Source: a virus (taxonomy: Duplodnaviria > Heunggongvirae > Uroviricota > Caudoviricetes). Taken from it: 64,000 nt of DNA. Each line of letters starts with the position of its first letter. The stretch's first letter is position 1. The notes beneath the pieces are model-generated. The model made no database searches and was not told where the DNA came from. It saw only the letters and a list, made by a program, of their open reading frames with translations. Of the stretch, positions 49,661-57,853 are shown piece after piece. The translations under genes were made by a program, and so were the position numbers. Location of the stretch: IMG/VR virus record IMGVR_UViG_2681813233_000007; one strand, given 5' to 3'.

Positions 49661-50601
49661 TGAATCTGTCCATCTCTCAAAAAGCGACAATGACCAGTAT
49701 TGAGATCGCGGAACTGGTAGGTAAGCGTCATGATAATGTGAAGCGTACCATTGAAGTATTAACTAAAGGTGGTGTCATTCAATTTCCTCAAATTGAGGAA
49801 ATTGAAAATAAACAATCAGTTGGCCCTCGTCGATTTTCCAAGGCTTACATCTTTGAAGGCGAACAAGGCAAGCGTGACAGTATCATTGTCGTCGCACAGC
49901 TTTCTCCCGAATTTACCGCCCGGCTGGTGGACCGCTGGCGCGAACTGGAGAATGCCCGGGTACAGTTAAAATCAAAAGCCGAAATCCTAGCTGAAATGGC
50001 GCAAATGCATCTTGAGCATGAACGCCGGATCAACGCCGTTAATGCCCAGGTAGCCGAAGTATCGGCACAAGTGTCCAAAGTCGCTGAAACCGTCGAGCAA
50101 ATCAAGAAAGGCAATATGCCGGAAGGCTACATTGGCTACCGCCAGCTGGCGGCGAAATGCGGCCTGACTGAAGCCAAATGTCGCAACCTTGTCAACGCTT
50201 ACCGGATTCCCACCGATACACATGAGTTTTTGACCCCCGATGGCTTGCTTGCGCGACGCTCCATTGTGGCCCTGGCCCCCTTCCGGAAAGCCTTTAAGCA
50301 GGTGATGTCGGAGGCAGAACCACGCAATAAACGCTGGTATCATCCAAAGATGGGGATGTTTCAGGCAATCCACCATCCTGTGCCTGAAAGTCCAAAGGCA
50401 AACCTGTCGTTGCATACCGCCAGAGAGAGGATTAAAACAGGGTATGCAATCGTATGCCGTCGAGCATCTTGGCCTGAAGGTGTATGGGTATGGCCCGAAG
50501 GTGGATCACGAAAGCACTGGCGCACTATCCGGGATGGGAAAATCCATGCGATTGATTTAGCTCCAGAGGATGTTGTTGCTACGGACTGGATTGTTAGTTA
50601 A
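49660..50601 (+). CDS. Antirepressor-like protein (Ant/KilA-type), copy 2
   Basis: 313 aa; N-terminal and central blocks shared with copy 1, including near-identical nucleotide stretches. Confidence 0.55.
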   Translation: MNLSISQKATMTSIEIAELVGKRHDNVKRTIEVLTKGGVIQFPQIEEIENKQSVGPRRFSKAYIFEGEQGKRDSIIVVAQLSPEFTARLVDRWRELENARVQLKSKAEILAEMAQMHLEHERRINAVNAQVAEVSAQVSKVAETVEQIKKGNMPEGYIGYRQLAAKCGLTEAKCRNLVNAYRIPTDTHEFLTPDGLLARRSIVALAPFRKAFKQVMSEAEPRNKRWYHPKMGMFQAIHHPVPESPKANLSLHTARERIKTGYAIVCRRASWPEGVWVWPEGGSRKHWRTIRDGKIHAIDLAPEDVVATDWIVS

Positions 50602-50609
50602 TTACTGTT

Positions 50610-50628
50610 GCCCCGGCCTGTCCGGGGC
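50610..50628 (+). terminator. Hairpin GCCCCGGCC-TGT-CCGGGGC (terminator-like)
   Basis: Same stem as the hairpin after ant copy 1; weaker T-run. Confidence 0.45.
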
Positions 50629-51081
50629 TTTAACTACTAAATAACCGGATTCTCCGCACGATGAAGAAAATAGATTTCACTTACTCTGCTGCCACAATCC
50701 AGCGACGTTTCAGTCTCATAAGGGAAGTGGAACTATCAAAAAACTGGTATCAAATTCTACTGGATGAAGAGTTTTCACTGATGGTTATAGCATAAAAATT
50801 GGCTATGCCGAATGACCGGCACAAGGTCATAGCCAGCCTGGATCTGGTGACAAACAGATACTGGGAATCCGAGGAACTACTTGAAGTTGGCTTGATACGC
50901 GAGATGATAGAACAGGCTGTTCCCCTCCACTTACAGCAACCATAATTGAAAGGTCTTAACGATAGTCTGCCACGAATAGTTACTTTCACTGCCTAAAGTT
51001 ATTTAATTGCATTACAAAGTGTAAATTAGTAACATTAGAATCTCACACAGCACTATAACTATATGTTTTTTATGTAAAAGG

Positions 51082-51441
51082 ATGATAATCGTGGCTACTA
51101 AAATTAAACTTGAAAACCCTCAAACTGGCGAATCAATCACCGGTTTTTATGGTTTTTCCTGGACTACATTCTTGTTTGGTGCTTTTCCAGCTTTGTTCAG
51201 GAAAGACTTTATAACTTTTATTGGGGTATTCGTAGTGATGCTGATACTGGCATTCCTCACAGCCGGAATTGGCCCGTGGATTGCCTCATTTATCTGGGCG
51301 TTCATGTATAATAAATATTTCACCGTAAATAAGATAAAACAAGGCTTCATTTTTGCTGGTTCTCACACAGAAAATGAGTTGGCTGCTAGCAAGCTAGGAT
51401 TGTCATTAAATCAAAACAACTGCAAAACTATTACCGAGTAA
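51082..51441 (+). CDS. Small integral membrane protein (DUF2628-like)
   Basis: NPQTGE...GFSWTTFLFGAF...LFRK pattern with two TM helices; start may be the GTG near 51091. Confidence 0.4.
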   Translation: MIIVATKIKLENPQTGESITGFYGFSWTTFLFGAFPALFRKDFITFIGVFVVMLILAFLTAGIGPWIASFIWAFMYNKYFTVNKIKQGFIFAGSHTENELAASKLGLSLNQNNCKTITE

Positions 51442-51481
51442 TAGCCAAAAAGCAGGCTTAATAGTAAGCCTGCTATGTCAA

Positions 51482-52366
51482 TCACGAATCTCTCTGACAA
51501 TTCAGAAACATAAACGCCCGCTTGTCTGTTAAATCCGTAACATAATACTCTCTCATGCCTGTAGGTTTTATTCTACGAGCATATACAAACTTATGAACTG
51601 GTTGTTTTTCCCCATAACTTACATCAGTCCTAAATTCATCAACCACGCTACCATCTTTTTCGACTTCCTTCCTCACCAGCTTATTTTCTAATGCTGGCTT
51701 TAATTCGTCCATGCCACTAAAAGCATCCTGGCCTGTACTATTGCCTCGATTTCCGCGCGGCAAATCCCAGGAGAAATAAGTGCCATAGTCAGTAATCACA
51801 CGATCCCAGACTCCGGTATCCCCCATATAGTTAGAGCGCTTTCCATTGTAGGTTACAGCCACTTTACAGGAGTACGTTTCTTCATTCCCTCCAGCCTTAG
51901 TCGCTGTGGTTGCAGGGATATTTTGGATAGATGCGCTTACGTCATCTTGCGTTAATTCCTCAACTGGAGCAAATTCATATATGGGTGTGCCGAGGCTATT
52001 TAAATATAACTTATATCTAACCCTAAGCGCACTTCCATCTGAGAATTCATACGTTCCCAGGCATTGGAGCTTATTTTTTTCTCTTATCTCATTGATCTGA
52101 TTATAAGCATCAATTACAGAGATTGCTTCCTGATCGTCCTTCAGCAGTTCATTATAATCATCAATTAACATCTGTCTGGTTTTAGGGGCATTGCAGTCAA
52201 TTTTGCTAAAATCATAAGCAAAGGCAAATGTGGGAACAGAGAGAGCAACAACAGTAGCAAGTATTGTTGAGGAACATCTTTTTCCATTTTTTATAAAAAA
52301 CATTTCATTAACTCCATACTTTACCATCTTAGCCGCGAGCGCGGTCCCTAAAACCATTAACTTCAC
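51482..52366 (-). CDS. Secreted/periplasmic protein (hypothetical), low-GC
   Basis: Signal-peptide-like N-terminus; AT-rich coding sequence; start uncertain. Confidence 0.45.
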   Translation of the reverse strand: MKLMVLGTALAAKMVKYGVNEMFFIKNGKRCSSTILATVVALSVPTFAFAYDFSKIDCNAPKTRQMLIDDYNELLKDDQEAISVIDAYNQINEIREKNKLQCLGTYEFSDGSALRVRYKLYLNSLGTPIYEFAPVEELTQDDVSASIQNIPATTATKAGGNEETYSCKVAVTYNGKRSNYMGDTGVWDRVITDYGTYFSWDLPRGNRGNSTGQDAFSGMDELKPALENKLVRKEVEKDGSVVDEFRTDVSYGEKQPVHKFVYARRIKPTGMREYYVTDLTDKRAFMFLNCQRDS

Positions 52367-52649
52367 TGCACCGTTCCTTCATGCAATCAAAATGACTTTT
52401 ATGTTATAAAAATAATCAGCCAAATCAACATGATTTAGGCCAAATTTCTGTCAAAAAATAAAATCCACAAAAAGTGGTTGACACTATTTTGGAAATCACA
52501 AACTGCACATAATCCATCGCGCTAACGGCTCCCGTTGAAGGTTCTTTTGACGATTAACTTTCAGCCGAAGCGCGGTAGGGAGTCATAACGCCAAAGCAGG
52601 CCGCCATGTGCGGCCTTTTTTTGTATCCGTCATCCGTGGAGGAAGGACA

Positions 52650-53303
52650 ATGGAAAAGATCGCAATATTCAGCCTGACCACCAGCAAGCCTCAAATGCTC
52701 ACTGCAATACTGAAAGACGGTGCTCTCATTATTAACGAAGTAAAACCCCTTCCCGCGTCAGCATTGGAGCAAAAGCAAAAAATTCCTCCAGCTATAGCAG
52801 CCCTGCGGAAAAGCAAATTTAAGGTACTGGTAGACGAAATTACGCCAACGATCTCCGCTGGCACCGGAGCAAGCCAGGTGACTCTCAAGACCCGTCATGC
52901 CGATGGCAGAGCAGCAATCATCGTCGGGATGGAGAGATACAGAGAGTTAAAACTCCAGAAGCTATTATCCCTGCCGCAAAATAACAAAGGTGCTTTCGAA
53001 ATCCCCGACTCCATCGTTGACACCGAATACAACGGTAACGGAGAAGAAGTCTACCGGGTGAACTGGCAGGATATCAGGCCGGAACATATTCTGATGATCC
53101 TGTGTTGCTACGCGACCGTATACCACAACGTTGCCAGTGCAGATTACGTAGAGCAGATGACCGGTACAGTCGAGAAAGAGCAAAAAACAGGCATACTCGC
53201 TTCGTTCCTTTCCATTATTGGGCATGAAAAAGTTAAAGCAGGCACCTCCCAGCCAAAGTCACTGGCCGGGAAAGAAGTTGATGAAGATACCGTGATACTT
53301 TGA
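52650..53303 (+). CDS. Hypothetical protein
   Basis: ORF-track 52608..53303 trimmed to MEKIAIF; no recognised domain. Confidence 0.4.
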   Translation: MEKIAIFSLTTSKPQMLTAILKDGALIINEVKPLPASALEQKQKIPPAIAALRKSKFKVLVDEITPTISAGTGASQVTLKTRHADGRAAIIVGMERYRELKLQKLLSLPQNNKGAFEIPDSIVDTEYNGNGEEVYRVNWQDIRPEHILMILCCYATVYHNVASADYVEQMTGTVEKEQKTGILASFLSIIGHEKVKAGTSQPKSLAGKEVDEDTVIL

Positions 53304-53631
53304 TCACATTAGTAGCTTTGTTAACTCCCTCAATACCAGGTAGAAGAGTAACAAAAATATTGACGCAAGTATTTGCGTGGTCAATGAGGCGTTCATAAAC
53401 AGATCAATAAGCTTTAACAATTCTAGAATAACATCCATGTCATTCACTCCGTTTAATTTTTAATCTAATGCCAGCAAATGAAGCTGGCCCCCGCATAAAG
53501 ATTAATGAAAGTCACTTGTCACCAGTGAGGGGATTTATGAACCACATCCCCCTGAACTGGTGGCCTGTCTGTTTCTCGCATTTCACACCCTGCATACAGT
53601 TTCCCCCAGGTTATGACTGAGAGGCTTTGTT

Positions 53632-53961
53632 ATGGGCTATAGCAGACTCGACGATAGGTACATTGAAGACGATATTTTTCGTGCGCTGTTTCACCAGGAA
53701 ATGATTAAGCGGGTATCGGAGTATCACTCTGATAATTTCCAGTACACGATAAAGATTGATGAAGTATATCGTTCAGACCTTGCAGCCTACAGGGCGTATG
53801 GCAATGCAGATTTGCGCTGGGTATTCCGGGTGCTGGTGGGCCATGAGTCAGAAATGGAAGAAATGCCCGCAGGGACCACGTTAACTCTTCCTGATGTGGC
53901 ATGGCTGAGGAACAAGATCCGTGATTACGCAAGCGCGAAACCGGAGATAGAAAATGCCTGA
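53632..53961 (+). CDS. Hypothetical protein
   Basis: 109 aa; stop overlaps the start of the next ORF. Confidence 0.4.
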   Translation: MGYSRLDDRYIEDDIFRALFHQEMIKRVSEYHSDNFQYTIKIDEVYRSDLAAYRAYGNADLRWVFRVLVGHESEMEEMPAGTTLTLPDVAWLRNKIRDYASAKPEIENA

Positions 53962-55147
53962 TTTCCTGAAAAACCAGGACGGGCGCTATATCACTGACGG
54001 CCTGTCCTCTAAGGACTTCACGCGTTTATTCGACCTTATCAGGAAAGAACAAACCCGTAAGCGCCGACAAGCTCACCGGACGCTGACGCCAGGTAGACTG
54101 AGGAACAAATCCGCCGAAGATATTCTCAAGTTAGGGAAGAAAAAAGGCGGCACGTTCTTCACGCGAGACGACCTGAAAGGTTTCGAAAAGCTACGGAGTA
54201 AAACGCGCGAAAAATATGACAGCAAGACGGCTGGCATCACATACGCCCAGCTGGTGGCATCCAGCCAGGCAATCGATATTAAGCGTGCAAATAACGCCGT
54301 GGATGACGGATCTGGTATCAAAAGAGCTACACCCGTATCTCTTCGCCACAATGTGATTAATATCCGCGTAGAAGCATCGGATATATCCGTCCACCAGCAC
54401 CATATCGTCCGGATACGCTTTGAAGAATGGGATCAGATGGTTGATGACATCGCAGAAGACGATAAATCAGCTCTCAAAATCACTAAATCACTGTGCGCCG
54501 GGCGAGTGTCTTTCGATTGTGACTGTGGTCGTCATCAATACTGGTATCGTTACATCGCCACTGCGGGTAACTTTGCCCTGGCACCGCCAAAAGAATACGC
54601 CTATCCAAAAGTTCGCAACCCGAAGCTGCAAGGCGTCGCCTGTAAACACGTGATCCACTCAATGACGCGGTTACAGTCCGCCAGTTGGCAAATGAGTATT
54701 GCTCGTGCGCTACAAAAGGCTGCAACGCAAATTGCATTTGGTGACGATCGCCGCCGTACAACTAAACACTTCTCAAAAGAAGACGAGAAGGAGTTTAATC
54801 GCAATCGTAGCAGTAAAACGAACGTTGAAGCCGCCAAACGCGAATGGAGGCTCTATCAGAAGCGCCAGGCAGCTTTAAGTACAAAACTGGCAAAGGACAA
54901 CGGCAAGATCGACAAACTACGTGACCAATTGACCAAGGCCAGAAAGTTGTCAGATGCACAGAAAAAACGGGCGGCAGCAAAAGAAGCGGCCTTGCAACGT
55001 GAGAAACAGAAAAACAAGGAGCTTCAGCAACGCCTTGCCGATCAGTTCGCACTGAAGAAGCAGGCGTTCATTGATGCGCTTGTCATGGCTGGAACACCAC
55101 CAGCACAAGCTGAAAAAATGTTCATGGAGTATGTAAAAAAAGCATAA
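53954..55147 (+). CDS. Hypothetical protein with SWIM-like zinc-finger pattern and basic coiled-coil C-terminus
   Basis: 397 aa; FDCDCGRH...VACKH (CxC...CxH); Lys/Ala/Gln-rich C-terminal 100 aa. Confidence 0.45.
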   Translation: MPDFLKNQDGRYITDGLSSKDFTRLFDLIRKEQTRKRRQAHRTLTPGRLRNKSAEDILKLGKKKGGTFFTRDDLKGFEKLRSKTREKYDSKTAGITYAQLVASSQAIDIKRANNAVDDGSGIKRATPVSLRHNVINIRVEASDISVHQHHIVRIRFEEWDQMVDDIAEDDKSALKITKSLCAGRVSFDCDCGRHQYWYRYIATAGNFALAPPKEYAYPKVRNPKLQGVACKHVIHSMTRLQSASWQMSIARALQKAATQIAFGDDRRRTTKHFSKEDEKEFNRNRSSKTNVEAAKREWRLYQKRQAALSTKLAKDNGKIDKLRDQLTKARKLSDAQKKRAAAKEAALQREKQKNKELQQRLADQFALKKQAFIDALVMAGTPPAQAEKMFMEYVKKA

Positions 55148-55180
55148 ACCACACATAGCCTAGTAGTTTATGCTGGGCTT

Positions 55181-55909
55181 TCATTTTTTTGAAAGATCAA
55201 CTCCAGTATTATCAAACAAACTGGAAATATCAGACACCAATTTATTAAAATGCTTGTCATCATTATAGAATGATGTGCTTTTTATAGCGACTATAAAATC
55301 ACATAAATCTTGCGGAGATTCAATGCTAACCCCCTTATTTTTATATAGTTCAATAATACTGCCAACATCAGTATGCAATAGTTTTATCGCGCCACAAATT
55401 TCTCGCTGTTTCGTAACCAAGTCATTAAGTTTATTTTCATTTTCATCTAAGATTTGTTTTGAATATTTAGCGTCATTGGTTGCTTGATTTAACTTTGTTT
55501 TCTTTCTTTGCAATTCTATTCTTTTATCATAATCAGCAACTTCATCTAAATATCTTATTTCAGTGTATAATTTACTTGTTAGCTTAGATATCGTCAGTGT
55601 GAGAATAGGAGCTAATACAGATGCAAATACTCCATAAATAAATGGGATTACAACGTGACAAACCCACGGGGGTACAATCCAATTATCAAAGAACGGTACA
55701 TTACCACCAACAAAAACAATAGATAATGTATATAGGATGTCGTCCTTTGACTTTAATATAATTAAAATATCCTTCCAGTTAAGGATTAGAAAAGAAATGA
55801 CAACATATGCAAAAACCTTGTTAAATATTTTATCTTTTATTATTTCAGAAAATGATTTTAGTTCTGTTTCATTTATAGACGAATTATCTTTAACTTTTTC
55901 TGACATCAT
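55181..55909 (-). CDS. Membrane protein with cytoplasmic coiled coil; candidate exclusion/abortive-infection effector
   Basis: 242 aa; 2-3 N-terminal TM helices then coiled coil; very AT-rich gene; last gene of the higB-higA-orf66 leftward string. Confidence 0.5.
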   Translation of the reverse strand: MMSEKVKDNSSINETELKSFSEIIKDKIFNKVFAYVVISFLILNWKDILIILKSKDDILYTLSIVFVGGNVPFFDNWIVPPWVCHVVIPFIYGVFASVLAPILTLTISKLTSKLYTEIRYLDEVADYDKRIELQRKKTKLNQATNDAKYSKQILDENENKLNDLVTKQREICGAIKLLHTDVGSIIELYKNKGVSIESPQDLCDFIVAIKSTSFYNDDKHFNKLVSDISSLFDNTGVDLSKK

Positions 55910-55930
55910 AGCTTATCCTGATTACTTTTA

Positions 55931-56131
55931 TTATGGATAGTTAAAAGATTCAACAGGTGATGGTGGCTGAATTGGGTAATGTTTCTTCTCGTACTCCTCA
56001 ATGAGAAGACTCATAACCTCAAAGAAATCACCTTCCGGAGTATTCATTTCCGGTTCGTTATCGAACATCGGTTCGACCGCACGCAGTGCGGCCTCATAAT
56101 CTTGTTCTGTACGGATAGGTTTAATGTTCAT
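55931..56131 (-). CDS. Orphan antitoxin-like small acidic protein
   Basis: 66 aa; MNIKPIRTEQDYEAALRAVEPMFD resembles the N-terminal segment of HTH-XRE antitoxins but has no HTH. Confidence 0.4.
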   Translation of the reverse strand: MNIKPIRTEQDYEAALRAVEPMFDNEPEMNTPEGDFFEVMSLLIEEYEKKHYPIQPPSPVESFNYP

Positions 56132-56187
56132 TAATTACAAAGGAAAGCCCACTTGCTAAGTGGGCTTTTTGTATGTGTTTTACTATA

Positions 56188-56526
56188 TCAGGCTGCTTTT
56201 TTATTCAGGTTCCGCTGAGAAATAAATTTTTCAGCAGTATTGATACGACTTAACTCTTCCTGAACGCGCATATCATTTTCGACTTCCCACAGATCTACTG
56301 CGGTCTGAAGATTAATCCAAAAATCTACAGAAGTATCGAATGCTTTTGCCAGGCGATATGCCATATCCATCGTTAGCTTACGATTATTATTAACAAGAGC
56401 ACTTACGGTGTTACGATGAACATGAAGTATTTCTGCTAACTCGTTGATCTTCAGCTCTAACGGCTCCAGGTATTCGTACAGCAGGATATCACCTACGGTC
56501 GTCGGTTTTCTGGTTGCCTGTTTCAT
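56188..56526 (-). CDS. higA: HigA antitoxin (HTH-XRE)
   Basis: VGDILLYEYLEPLELKINELAEILHVHRNTVSALVNN HTH motif; downstream of higB. Confidence 0.85.
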   Translation of the reverse strand: MKQATRKPTTVGDILLYEYLEPLELKINELAEILHVHRNTVSALVNNNRKLTMDMAYRLAKAFDTSVDFWINLQTAVDLWEVENDMRVQEELSRINTAEKFISQRNLNKKAA

Positions 56527-56596
56527 TTTTTGCCCTTACTAGCGTGCGTATTAAGTGGACTCTGGTCAGAACCCGGTCCGTAACCGGGTATCTGTT

Positions 56597-56899
56597 TTAG
56601 TATTTGTGAGGGTCGAGATACAAGTCCTCGGCCTTTCCGTTAACCCACTTAAAAATTAACCTATATTGCTTATTCACCCTTACTGATGAATAGCCATTTA
56701 GCTTCCCTGACAGTTCCTCATACCGATTACCTGGTGGTGATCTTAAATCCTTACAGGTAGTTGCGGCATTGATAATGTCCAACTTCCGTGACAATGTCAT
56801 ATGAATATCAGGAGGTATCTTTCTATGTGGTGTTGAAAATTCAAAAAAATCATCAAGCCACGCATCCCTGAAATCCTTTATGTTAATTTTTTTGGTCAT
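56597..56899 (-). CDS. higB: HigB toxin (RelE/ParE-fold killer protein)
   Basis: 100 aa; ...PPGNRYEELSGKLNGYSSVRVNKQYRLIFKW... typical of the HigB family; toxin-first order. Confidence 0.85.
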   Translation of the reverse strand: MTKKINIKDFRDAWLDDFFEFSTPHRKIPPDIHMTLSRKLDIINAATTCKDLRSPPGNRYEELSGKLNGYSSVRVNKQYRLIFKWVNGKAEDLYLDPHKY

Positions 56900-57049
56900 T
56901 AGTCATTTGATCCTCCGTGATGATTACCGAATGCCATAACTATAGCGCACCGTTGCACTGTGCGCAAGTGCATTTTATGAATTCCCCCTCCTTCATCCAA
57001 AATCACAATCTCCCGAAAATCTTCCTTTCGATACCTGACAGATCGACCT

Positions 57050-57853
57050 TTGAGGATGCTTATGGGCCGTTTTGACGAATGGTTTGCTGACGATGCAAAC
57101 CTGGCAAGTAAGGAGTCAGAACATGACAGCACGCAGAGAGAAACGCCAGCGCCGATTGAAGCGAATGCAGGAGGCGCGCCGGAACATGGCAATACCGGTT
57201 CGGATTCATTCAGCATTCTGGAAGAGCAACCCGCCGCCAAAGCTGATAGCCATGATAATTTTGCTGATAGCAACGGTGGCCTTACTCCGGATGCTGGCGA
57301 ATCAGATATAGCCATACTTCCATCTTCCCTGGCTGGCAGAGAACCGACTCCACAGTTAAAAGCACGCTATAACGGGCATAAAGCCTTTAACGACCAAATC
57401 CGCGCAGACTGGATGCTGATTATTGAATCCAGCCCAGACGCGTTTCAGGCTCTCTTATATCGACCAGATGTTGGCACATATGGGGTAGTCAGCGACGAAA
57501 CAGGAGAAGAGTCATTCACTGAACTGGATAACAACCAACGCGAACTGACTTACCAGGAACCTGAAATCGTTTATGTGCTGGATAACCCTGACGGGCGTGA
57601 CTCTTTCCATGCGATTGACGCAGACGGTGAGCAGGATGGCTTAACCGATGATGTTCTGATTCTGCGTATTGCAGCAAATAACGTCCCCGTCGGCTCAATT
57701 CTTGAATGGAATGAAGAGATGGTAAACGGCGTAGCGCGCCGCTGGTGGTACGTGCACCGTATTTTTAGCTACGGCACACAGCATGTTGGTTCGCTTTACT
57801 ACTGCATACCTGCCAGGAATTTTGATACGACTCAAAACGGAGTGATCGAATGA
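57050..57853 (+). CDS. Hypothetical virion-morphogenesis protein
   Basis: 267 aa; first of four translationally coupled ORFs ending in a spike-like protein. Confidence 0.4.
   Translation: MRMLMGRFDEWFADDANLASKESEHDSTQRETPAPIEANAGGAPEHGNTGSDSFSILEEQPAAKADSHDNFADSNGGLTPDAGESDIAILPSSLAGREPTPQLKARYNGHKAFNDQIRADWMLIIESSPDAFQALLYRPDVGTYGVVSDETGEESFTELDNNQRELTYQEPEIVYVLDNPDGRDSFHAIDADGEQDGLTDDVLILRIAANNVPVGSILEWNEEMVNGVARRWWYVHRIFSYGTQHVGSLYYCIPARNFDTTQNGVIE

Follow-up and report, generated by a model that had tools for sequence, protein, structure and literature searches.

Positions 50700–55147 of a 64,000-nucleotide stretch of viral DNA (IMG/VR record IMGVR_UViG_2681813233_000007; the whole stretch is referred to as the window) carry five open reading frames (ORFs), and the question raised by this locus is whether they form one block of mobile cargo or belong to different parts of the element. 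An initial annotation, made from the nucleotide sequence and its ORFs, had described them as a low-GC block of unknown genes, in which a small membrane protein and a secreted protein form a pair resembling exclusion or surface-modification cargo and an overlapping gene pair encodes a SWIM-like, probably nucleic-acid-binding protein. All five ORFs are found at the coordinates given there. The answer that we regard as highly probable is that 50661–52366 (approximately 1.7 kb) is true variable cargo, that 52650–55147 consists of core genes, and that the interval is a junction between the two and not a functional unit.

The element and its relation to P1

Over 50600–55200 the window is 97.5% identical in nucleotide sequence to Escherichia phage D6 (NC_050154.1/MF356679.1) across 100% of the length, and over 50600–57100 it is 99.9% identical to the Escherichia coli plasmid pE2863-2 (NZ_AP018804.1), a segment also matched by approximately 100 further D6-like plasmids of about 90 kb from E. 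coli, Salmonella and Shigella. These matches place the element among the D6-like members of the P1 phage-plasmid group. The gene set and gene order of D6 and pE2863-2 are identical to those of the interval, and the GenBank/RefSeq record of D6 labels the region as orf81 (pmgF-like), orf80 (hypothetical), orf79 (simB-like), orf78 (mat-like), two tiny ORFs, orf75 (P1 gene 26-like baseplate protein) and orf74 (P1 gene 25-like tail protein). Homologies to P1 were checked directly with tblastn, BLASTP, phmmer and PHROG profiles, independently of the notes in the D6 annotation. A sixth gene at the left edge, the pmgF homologue at 50661–50945, had been overlooked.

A junction between cargo and core genes

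The GC content is 38.2% over 50946–52500 and 47.6% over 52650–55147, the latter being the backbone level and equal to that of the whole window (47.6%); the description as a low-GC block holds for approximately 50750–52500 and fails for 52650–55147. No ORF in the interval scored above threshold against Pfam or NCBIfam. Three of the five ORFs, said to contain no recognizable phage structural motifs, are nevertheless homologues of P1 morphogenesis proteins: Mat (33% identity over 95% of the length, E 2e-31), Gp26 (phmmer E 1e-16, 96 residues) and gp25 (57% identity over residues 1–334, E 3e-113, tblastn). Homology to conserved virion proteins of P1-like phages, the outcome that the initial annotation had set against its own proposal, is thus present in three of the five.

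The distribution of these genes was determined at 80 IMG/VR loci that encode gp25 relatives, taken with 6-kb flanks, at which each protein of the window was scored by tblastn. Relatives of gp26, gp25 and gp7 are encoded at 80 of the 80 loci, and mat is present at all 55 D6-like and intermediate-lineage loci. In 24 of the 25 intermediate lineages the mat stop codon lies 0–6 nt from the start of gene 26, resulting in a compact ref–mat–26–25–7 arrangement. The other genes have a patchy distribution: orf80 occurs at 15 of the 30 D6-like loci and at none of the 50 others, the SimB-like N-domain of the secreted protein at 14 of the 30 and, at a different position, at 2 of the 50, and its C-domain at 17 of the 30 and none of the 50. 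The genes immediately downstream of gene 25 (orf73, a helix–turn–helix (HTH) gene and HigBA) are confined to D6-like loci.

Many D6-like plasmid records match the window only from approximately 52324–52478 onwards, with other genes filling the slot to the left. These are two unrelated minus-strand genes in p1_035148, five genes including dcd in pSL26_91 and, in NJWF01000014, a sim-like allele directly beside ant, without pmgF or orf80. The vicinity of simB has also been reported as the divergent region of D6-like Salmonella plasmids (PMC6799933). In the arrangement that we propose, 50661–52366 would lie at the distal end of an accessory slot that is prone to recombination and situated between ref (with the immI-like icd/ant genes) and mat, and 52650–55147 would comprise three core genes of late morphogenesis, mat, 26 and 25. 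The idea of an unknown cargo block survives for the membrane and secreted ORFs, which are variable, and not for 52650–55147, where the genes are conserved and already annotated in D6.

That the whole of 50.7–55.1 kb forms a single block of variable, low-GC cargo, made up of an exclusion or surface-modification pair and a nucleic-acid-binding SWIM protein and unrelated to the virion or to replication, is very improbable: the low GC at 50750–52500, the variability of orf80 and the simB-like gene, the silence of Pfam and NCBIfam on every ORF and a SWIM-like motif that is real all favour it, but it is contradicted by the backbone GC of 52650–55147, by the clear homology of Mat, gp26 and gp25 to P1 morphogenesis proteins, by the universality of these homologues among relatives, and by P1 itself, in which mat, 25 and 26 are listed as known essential genes on the strength of amber mutants (PMC10695390, which cites earlier work on this point).

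Predicted envelope proteins in the accessory slot

The product of orf80 has 119 residues with a hydrophobic core of approximately 50 residues at positions 24–76, in agreement with its description as a small membrane protein. It shares 54–57% identity with proteins of jumbo phages of the 121Q/PBECO4 type, has distant kin among Lactobacillus phage proteins and showed no homologue in P1 in the sequence comparison. Its homologues fall into 183 clusters, many of them chromosomal in bacteria. Pfam gives no match to DUF2628 at E ≤ 10; UniRef names several homologues of 47–69% identity ‘DUF2628 domain-containing protein’. A literature search on ‘HrgC’, the name given to the homologues in phage 121Q, returned unrelated papers only. 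The hairpin at 51451–51474 lies between orf80 and the convergent simB-like gene.

The secreted protein (D6 orf79) begins with a Sec-type signal peptide (MFFIKNGKRCSSTILATVVALSVPTFAFA followed by YD), in agreement with its description as a secreted protein. The reading frame extends to a GTG at 52366; the ATG at 52303 has a GGAG 8 nt upstream and is the likely start, yielding a predicted protein of 273 residues. Downstream of the signal peptide, a linker joins an N-domain that resembles SimB to a conserved C-domain. Residues ~30–115 show homology to P1 SimB over its entire length (46% identity, E 2e-27, BLASTP); the N-domain shares with SimB a signal peptide and a conserved cysteine pattern. 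The C-domain, which P1 lacks, comprises approximately 130 strongly conserved residues (YFSWDLPRGNRGNSTGQD...VYARRIKPxGxREYYVTD) with two conserved cysteines, and its family is represented by only 11 clusters among 5.8 billion proteins. In 3 of these 11 an unrelated sequence takes the place of the SimB-like N-domain, with the C-domain and its two cysteines retained. The AlphaFold2 (AF2) model has an overall predicted local distance difference test score (pLDDT) of 57, with a helix-plus-sheet N-domain at approximately 80, a disordered linker and a low-confidence, β-rich C-domain; a sequence search of the PDB found no relatives. A SimB–SimC fusion was considered for the 273-residue protein and rejected for lack of SimC similarity: the best BLASTP match to P1 SimC has an E value of 1.8, and tblastn recovers the SimB part alone. 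Compared with D6, this gene is the most divergent of the interval, with 92% amino acid identity and a ratio of non-synonymous to synonymous substitution rates (dN/dS) of 0.23.

As in the P1 sim locus (simA–simB–simC), the simB-like gene adjoins an immunity-type icd/ant region, although it sits on the opposite side of icd/ant and is accompanied by no homologue of SimA or SimC. D6-like plasmids are reported to have neither simA nor simC (PMC6799933), and in P1 simA, simB and simC are all non-essential (PMC10695390).

The orf80 and simB-like genes are variable accessory cargo. Their location, export signals, relation to SimB and allele swapping suggest that they plausibly encode envelope accessory proteins that act in superinfection exclusion, and ‘exclusion cargo’ appears a reasonable label for the secreted protein in view of its domain homologous to P1 SimB. 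The inner-membrane protein and the Sec-exported SimB-domain protein would be expressed in the lysogen and placed at the envelope, where they would most plausibly hinder superinfecting phage in the manner of the P1 sim locus. Two points weigh against this proposal. Superimmunity in P1 is attributed to SimC, of which BLASTP found no homologue here, and a sim-like gene occurs without orf80 at two loci (L009 and L022), so that the two genes form no obligate pair; the candidate two-gene module was rejected on this ground.

It is possible, if not the outcome that we favour, that orf80 and the SimB-domain gene are instead unrelated ‘moron’ genes that affect host physiology, such as envelope stress or colonization, and have no anti-phage role. 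The frequency of orf80 homologues on bacterial chromosomes and the separate occurrence of the two genes are in keeping with such a role, as are the lack of a match of either protein to the PADLOC defence models (which also match none of mat, 26 and 25) and the standing of SimB as a merely ‘putative accessory’ in P1 superimmunity, with SimC absent here. A moron role is harder to reconcile with the position of the simB-like slot beside an immunity-type icd/ant region, as for P1 sim, and with the exchange of the N-domain among alleles that keep the C-domain, a pattern typical of proteins that target variable partners.

The core genes mat and 26

Mat is under strong purifying selection (dN/dS of 0.02 compared with D6); a sequence search of the PDB found no relatives of it. 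In P1 the gene lies beside ref, far from gene 26, whereas here and in most non-P1 lineages it is directly upstream of gene 26. Its ATG at 52650 is preceded by GGAGGA and is also the start annotated in D6. A terminator-like hairpin just upstream (52598–52625) overlaps the alternative GTG at 52608, which favours the ATG as the start of mat. There is no plus-strand gene for approximately 1.1 kb upstream of this hairpin, which may insulate mat from upstream transcription or have a regulatory role.

The spacer between mat and gene 26 (53304–53631, 332 bp) is absent in intermediate lineages and is 1.0–1.7 kb long in some D6-like loci; it contains an ORF for a hydrophobic protein of 47 residues (53304–53447, minus strand; phrog_38362). 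It is a third small insertion site.

The gene 26 product has 109 residues and a shorter N terminus than P1 Gp26 (125 residues; PDB 9ay5 chain S, 9vzk), the protein matched by phmmer. It also matches phrog_1269 (baseplate wedge subunit, 2.9e-36), and weak Pfam hints to Phage_gp53 and Phage_tail_X are in line with the published assignment as a plug. In cryo-electron microscopy (cryo-EM) of P1, six copies of gp26 form a T4 gp53-like plug between the wedges and the central hub, and the wedge–hub contact of gp26 is lost as the periphery separates on contraction (PMC12810830; bioRxiv 10.1101/2025.07.21.665459). Knockdown by CRISPR interference (CRISPRi) in P1 gave efficiencies of plating (EOPs) of 0.28 for mat, 0.11 for gene 25 and 0.12 for gene 26 (PMC10695390).

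In P1, according to its record, genes 26-25-7-24-6-5 form an operon, whose first gene is preceded by both a late promoter and a C1 operator. Neither the P1 C1 operator consensus (ATTGCTCTAATAAATTT) nor an LP26-like late promoter was found across the window within 3 mismatches, and a k-mer search for common upstream motifs gave nothing convincing. The results for the operator and the promoter are consistent with a different immunity specificity and divergent late promoters in D6-like elements.

Gene 25 and its possible site of action

Besides its similarity to P1 gp25, the gene 25 product matches the phrog_1722 profile (‘tail protein’) at 4e-197 over residues 2–396. It occupies the same place after gene 26 as in P1 and has the same invariant cysteines and histidine and a C-terminal coiled coil, for which the P1 note records similarity to myosin; the last ~60 residues of P1 gp25 have diverged from those of the protein described here. 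The protein is basic throughout (isoelectric point (pI) of 10). The ‘highly basic coiled coil’ of the initial annotation is borne out by residues 286–397, with a pI of 10.2 and 28 lysines and arginines against 13 aspartates and glutamates, and by the AF2 model, in which residues 291–378 (window 54824–55087) form one long helix (overall pLDDT 84.4; predicted template modelling score 0.73). Searches of PDB sequences with gp25, both as a single sequence and as a profile of its core, found no relatives.

The overlap between genes 26 and 25 that had been pointed out is 8 nt long. Gene 25 lies directly downstream of gene 26 at 80 of the 80 IMG/VR loci and also at the remote loci L007, L093 and L094. 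A gp26 homologue is encoded immediately upstream of the gp25 homologue in Acinetobacter phage vB_AbaM_ABMM1 (phmmer 1.4e-5), L094 (1.8e-16) and L093 (profile 2.8e-12), the last two having gp25 relatives of approximately 25% identity to the protein described here. At another remote locus, L095, homologues of gp7 and gp6 follow that of gp25. In P1, gene 7 starts 3 nt after gene 25, whereas here the two are separated by a cargo island of approximately 1.9 kb.

The loss phenotype of P1 gene 25, described as one of tail stability and known from amber mutants of P1, is recorded in the P1 annotation note and attributed to Walker & Walker 1983 as cited in PMC10695390. Two peptides of gp25 were detected in the P1 virion by mass spectrometry, a weak signal, and HHpred gave no role (PMC9024508); gp25 is not among the proteins modelled in the P1 cryo-EM structures (PMC12810830; bioRxiv 10.1101/2025.07.21.665459).

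Because genes 25 and 26 overlap and have almost equal EOPs on knockdown, and because gp26 has a clamp-like role between periphery and hub, we tentatively place the action of gp25 at the baseplate, where it may install or lock the gp26 clamp. Synthesis of gp25 would be translationally coupled to that of gp26 through the 8-nt overlap. The protein could then act as a zinc-stabilized assembly factor, or as a flexible component of low copy number, that works with gp26 in locking the baseplate periphery onto the hub. When gp25 is lost, tails would still assemble and would subsequently contract prematurely or fall apart, which would appear as the ‘tail stability’ phenotype.

A rather unlikely alternative places gp25 at the opposite, head-proximal end of the tail, where it would act with gp7 and gp24 in tail completion, in head–tail joining or in holding the end of the DNA by means of its basic SWIM and helical regions. 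The basic character of the entire protein would suit such a role, as would a SWIM domain, a type of domain said to bind DNA or protein. Gene 7 directly follows gene 25 in P1 and in remote relatives, and P1 genes 7, 24 and 25 are all annotated ‘tail stability’, with gp7 (the stopper) and gp24 (the terminator) now assigned to the neck by P1 cryo-EM. This shared label weighs against the baseplate proposal and makes a neck role about as plausible as one at the baseplate. The tightest conserved link of gene 25, however, is the overlap with gene 26, which is kept in remote relatives, and the CRISPRi EOPs of genes 25 and 26 (~0.1) differ from that of gene 7 (<8e-6), a difference that polarity may partly explain (PMC10695390). 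Moreover, P1 cryo-EM work reports no density for gp25 at the neck. Nucleic-acid binding by gp25, as put forward in the initial annotation, is possible and compatible with either site. The genes to which gene 25 is conservedly linked are those of the baseplate and neck.

A SWIM-type signature in gp25

The CxC...CxH pattern reported for gp25 is present as CDC at residues 189–191 (54518–54526) and CKH at residues 230–232 (54641–54649), and has the form of a SWIM-type signature. Its four putative ligands, C189, C191, C230 and H232, are invariant in 64 homologues of 44–88% identity. From 1.84 billion representatives of clusters at 50% identity, a profile of the core domain, residues 88–262 (alignment A4), retrieved 692 proteins at E ≤ 1e-3, 327 of them at E ≤ 1e-10; most are 320–450 residues long and have the core in the same place. 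Among 66 distant members (20–44% identity; mean column identity 19%), the only invariant residues are G94, C189, C191, P218, N222, G227, C230, K231 and H232.

The Pfam SWIM profile (PF04434) does not match gp25 or 20 of its close homologues at E ≤ 10. It matches 17 of the 66 distant members at E ≤ 1, all below threshold, whereas any other Pfam family matches three at most. In one of the distant members, P0209, residues 168–220 align over the Cys/His region with positions 11–36 of the 38 in the SWIM profile, at 14.9 bits. In the AF2 model of gp25, the CxC lies where a strand ends and leads into a helix, and the CxH where another helix begins. A Foldseek search of BFVD gave six matches at E ≤ 1e-3 to small phage proteins, the listed matches ranging from E 4e-6 to 2e-3 with a probability of 1.00. 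UniProt labels one of them, from Achromobacter phage Motura (E 3.2e-4, TMt 0.63), ‘SWIM-type domain-containing’, and gives the same kind of label to a protein of Burkholderia phage BcepSauron that falls just outside the threshold (E 1.7e-3). Neither Foldseek against the PDB nor a profile search of the PDB found anything for gp25.

The site is probably a SWIM-type zinc site. It has the same CxC...CxH signature as the SWIM zinc finger of PF04434, found in ZSWIM8, MuDR and bacterial SNF2-associated proteins; unlike these, the gp25 site has a spacer of 38 residues with an extra helix and is embedded in a tail-morphogenesis protein, SWIM fingers being known from helicase, transposase and ubiquitin-ligase contexts. 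Two features speak against the assignment: the best SWIM score in the family, 14.9 bits, lies below the Pfam membership cut-off of 19.6, and the 38-residue spacer between CxC and CxH is longer than in classical SWIM domains.

Alternatively, the four residues could be structural ones of an unrelated fold, as disulfides or a metal site of another kind, for example, and not a SWIM zinc site. We consider this unlikely, given that the four ligands together with P218, N222, G227 and K231 are the sole invariant columns besides G94 at 20–44% identity, that 17 of 66 members match SWIM and no more than three match any other Pfam family, that two SWIM-type-labelled proteins are among the probability-1.00 BFVD matches, and that dependence on disulfides is improbable for a cytoplasmic phage protein.

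Combining the SWIM-type site with the baseplate proposal, the gp25 family might be a zinc-dependent, SWIM-type tail-morphogenesis factor, non-structural or sub-stoichiometric, that installs or locks the gp26 plug, a combined proposal that we put forward as speculative. A non-structural or sub-stoichiometric role would account for the fact that gp25, although essential, appears in neither of the P1 cryo-EM reconstructions.

As a separate observation, approximately 200 bp over the Cys/His core of gene 25 (54491–54694) are the sole megablast match, at 83–84% DNA identity, to some 180 large plasmids of Klebsiella, Raoultella and Serratia. Other phage-plasmid modules, P1-like or SSU5-like, are presumably present on these otherwise unrelated-looking plasmids.

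Genes at the two edges of the interval

The pmgF homologue at the left edge retains its homology in an interrupted reading frame: a GAA-to-TAA change (G to T) leaves fragments of 44 and 48 residues, which match positions 1–44 and 48–93 of phrog_7349. The codon is GAA in D6, pSL26_91 and the 99.9%-identical pE2863-2, and the nonsense mutation is therefore private to the window. Either the gene, whose P1 counterpart is non-essential (PMC10695390), was inactivated recently, or the change is a sequencing error.

To the right of the boundary, a second low-GC island (36.1% over 55148–56950) follows gene 25. On the opposite strand, 55148–57049 (approximately 1.9 kb, 36% GC) contains orf73, a short HTH ORF, higA and higB, between genes 25 and 7. 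The orf73–HigBA island would have been inserted in D6-like elements, splitting the 26-25-7-24-6-5 operon that is contiguous in P1. With the island in place and a terminator-like hairpin directly after gene 25 (55157–55179), genes 7-24-6-5 presumably need a promoter of their own.

The orf73 product (55181–55909, minus strand; 242 residues, 29.2% GC) has 2–3 predicted transmembrane segments and a C-terminal coiled coil. It is a different allele from that of D6, with 56% amino acid identity between flanks that are 97–100% identical, and the alleles at D6-like loci fall into classes of either ~35–57% or 95–100% identity. This pattern suggests that alleles of a membrane protein beside HigBA have been exchanged, and orf73 is a possible candidate for a defence or exclusion gene. 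The adjacent ORF of 66 residues (55931–56131, minus strand) matches the first 65 of the 402 positions of the PADLOC model PD-Lambda-2_B (E 2.5e-16). D6 has an HTH protein of 119 residues (orf72) at this site, so the copy in the window may be truncated or a different allele.

Table 1 Features of the cargo–core junction, with positions in the window
Feature	Position	Strand	Basis
pmgF homologue (D6 orf81), inactivated	50661..50945	+	phrog_7349; in-frame TAA at 50793–50795
Small membrane protein (D6 orf80), DUF2628-like, accessory cargo	51082..51441	+	phrog_4915
Hairpin with flanking T runs, likely bidirectional terminator	51451..51474	.	Consensus scan only; 10-bp stem, 5 GC pairs
Predicted periplasmic two-domain protein (D6 orf79, simB-like), 273 residues	51482..52303	-	Signal peptide, SimB N-domain
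GC-rich hairpin followed by T7, terminator-like	52598..52625	+	Consensus scan only
mat (maturation control), core P1-family morphogenesis gene	52650..53303	+	P1 Mat homology; phrog_1837
Gene 26, baseplate ‘plug’, T4 gp53-like	53632..53961	+	PDB 9ay5_S/9vzk; phrog_1269
Gene 25, ‘tail stability’ protein: basic N-terminal helical region, central SWIM-type domain, basic C-terminal helix	53954..55147	+	P1 gp25; phrog_1722
gp25 conserved core domain, residues 88–262, putative zinc ligands C189, C191, C230, H232	54215..54739	+	Alignments
Terminator-like hairpin directly after gene 25, island edge	55157..55179	+	Consensus scan only

Implications

Three ORFs regarded as unknown are core virion genes of the P1 family, already annotated as such in D6. 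The identity of the genes in the interval was thus known. What is modestly new is the map of insertion sites, together with the well-supported SWIM-type signature of gp25 and the conserved coupling of genes 26 and 25; no mention of any of these was found in the searchable literature, nor a relevant one of SWIM in connection with a phage tail. The map places the cargo sites of D6-like phage-plasmids between ref/immI and mat, between mat and 26, and between 25 and 7, and helps in tracking accessory and resistance genes on these elements.

For gp25, which in P1 is essential and has been without an assigned role since 1983, the Cys/His site and the coupling to the plug gene make the question experimentally tractable. 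Should the proposed role be correct, gp25 would set the stability of the extended, pre-contraction state in a large group of contractile tails, and its central domain would be the first SWIM domain with a role in virion assembly.

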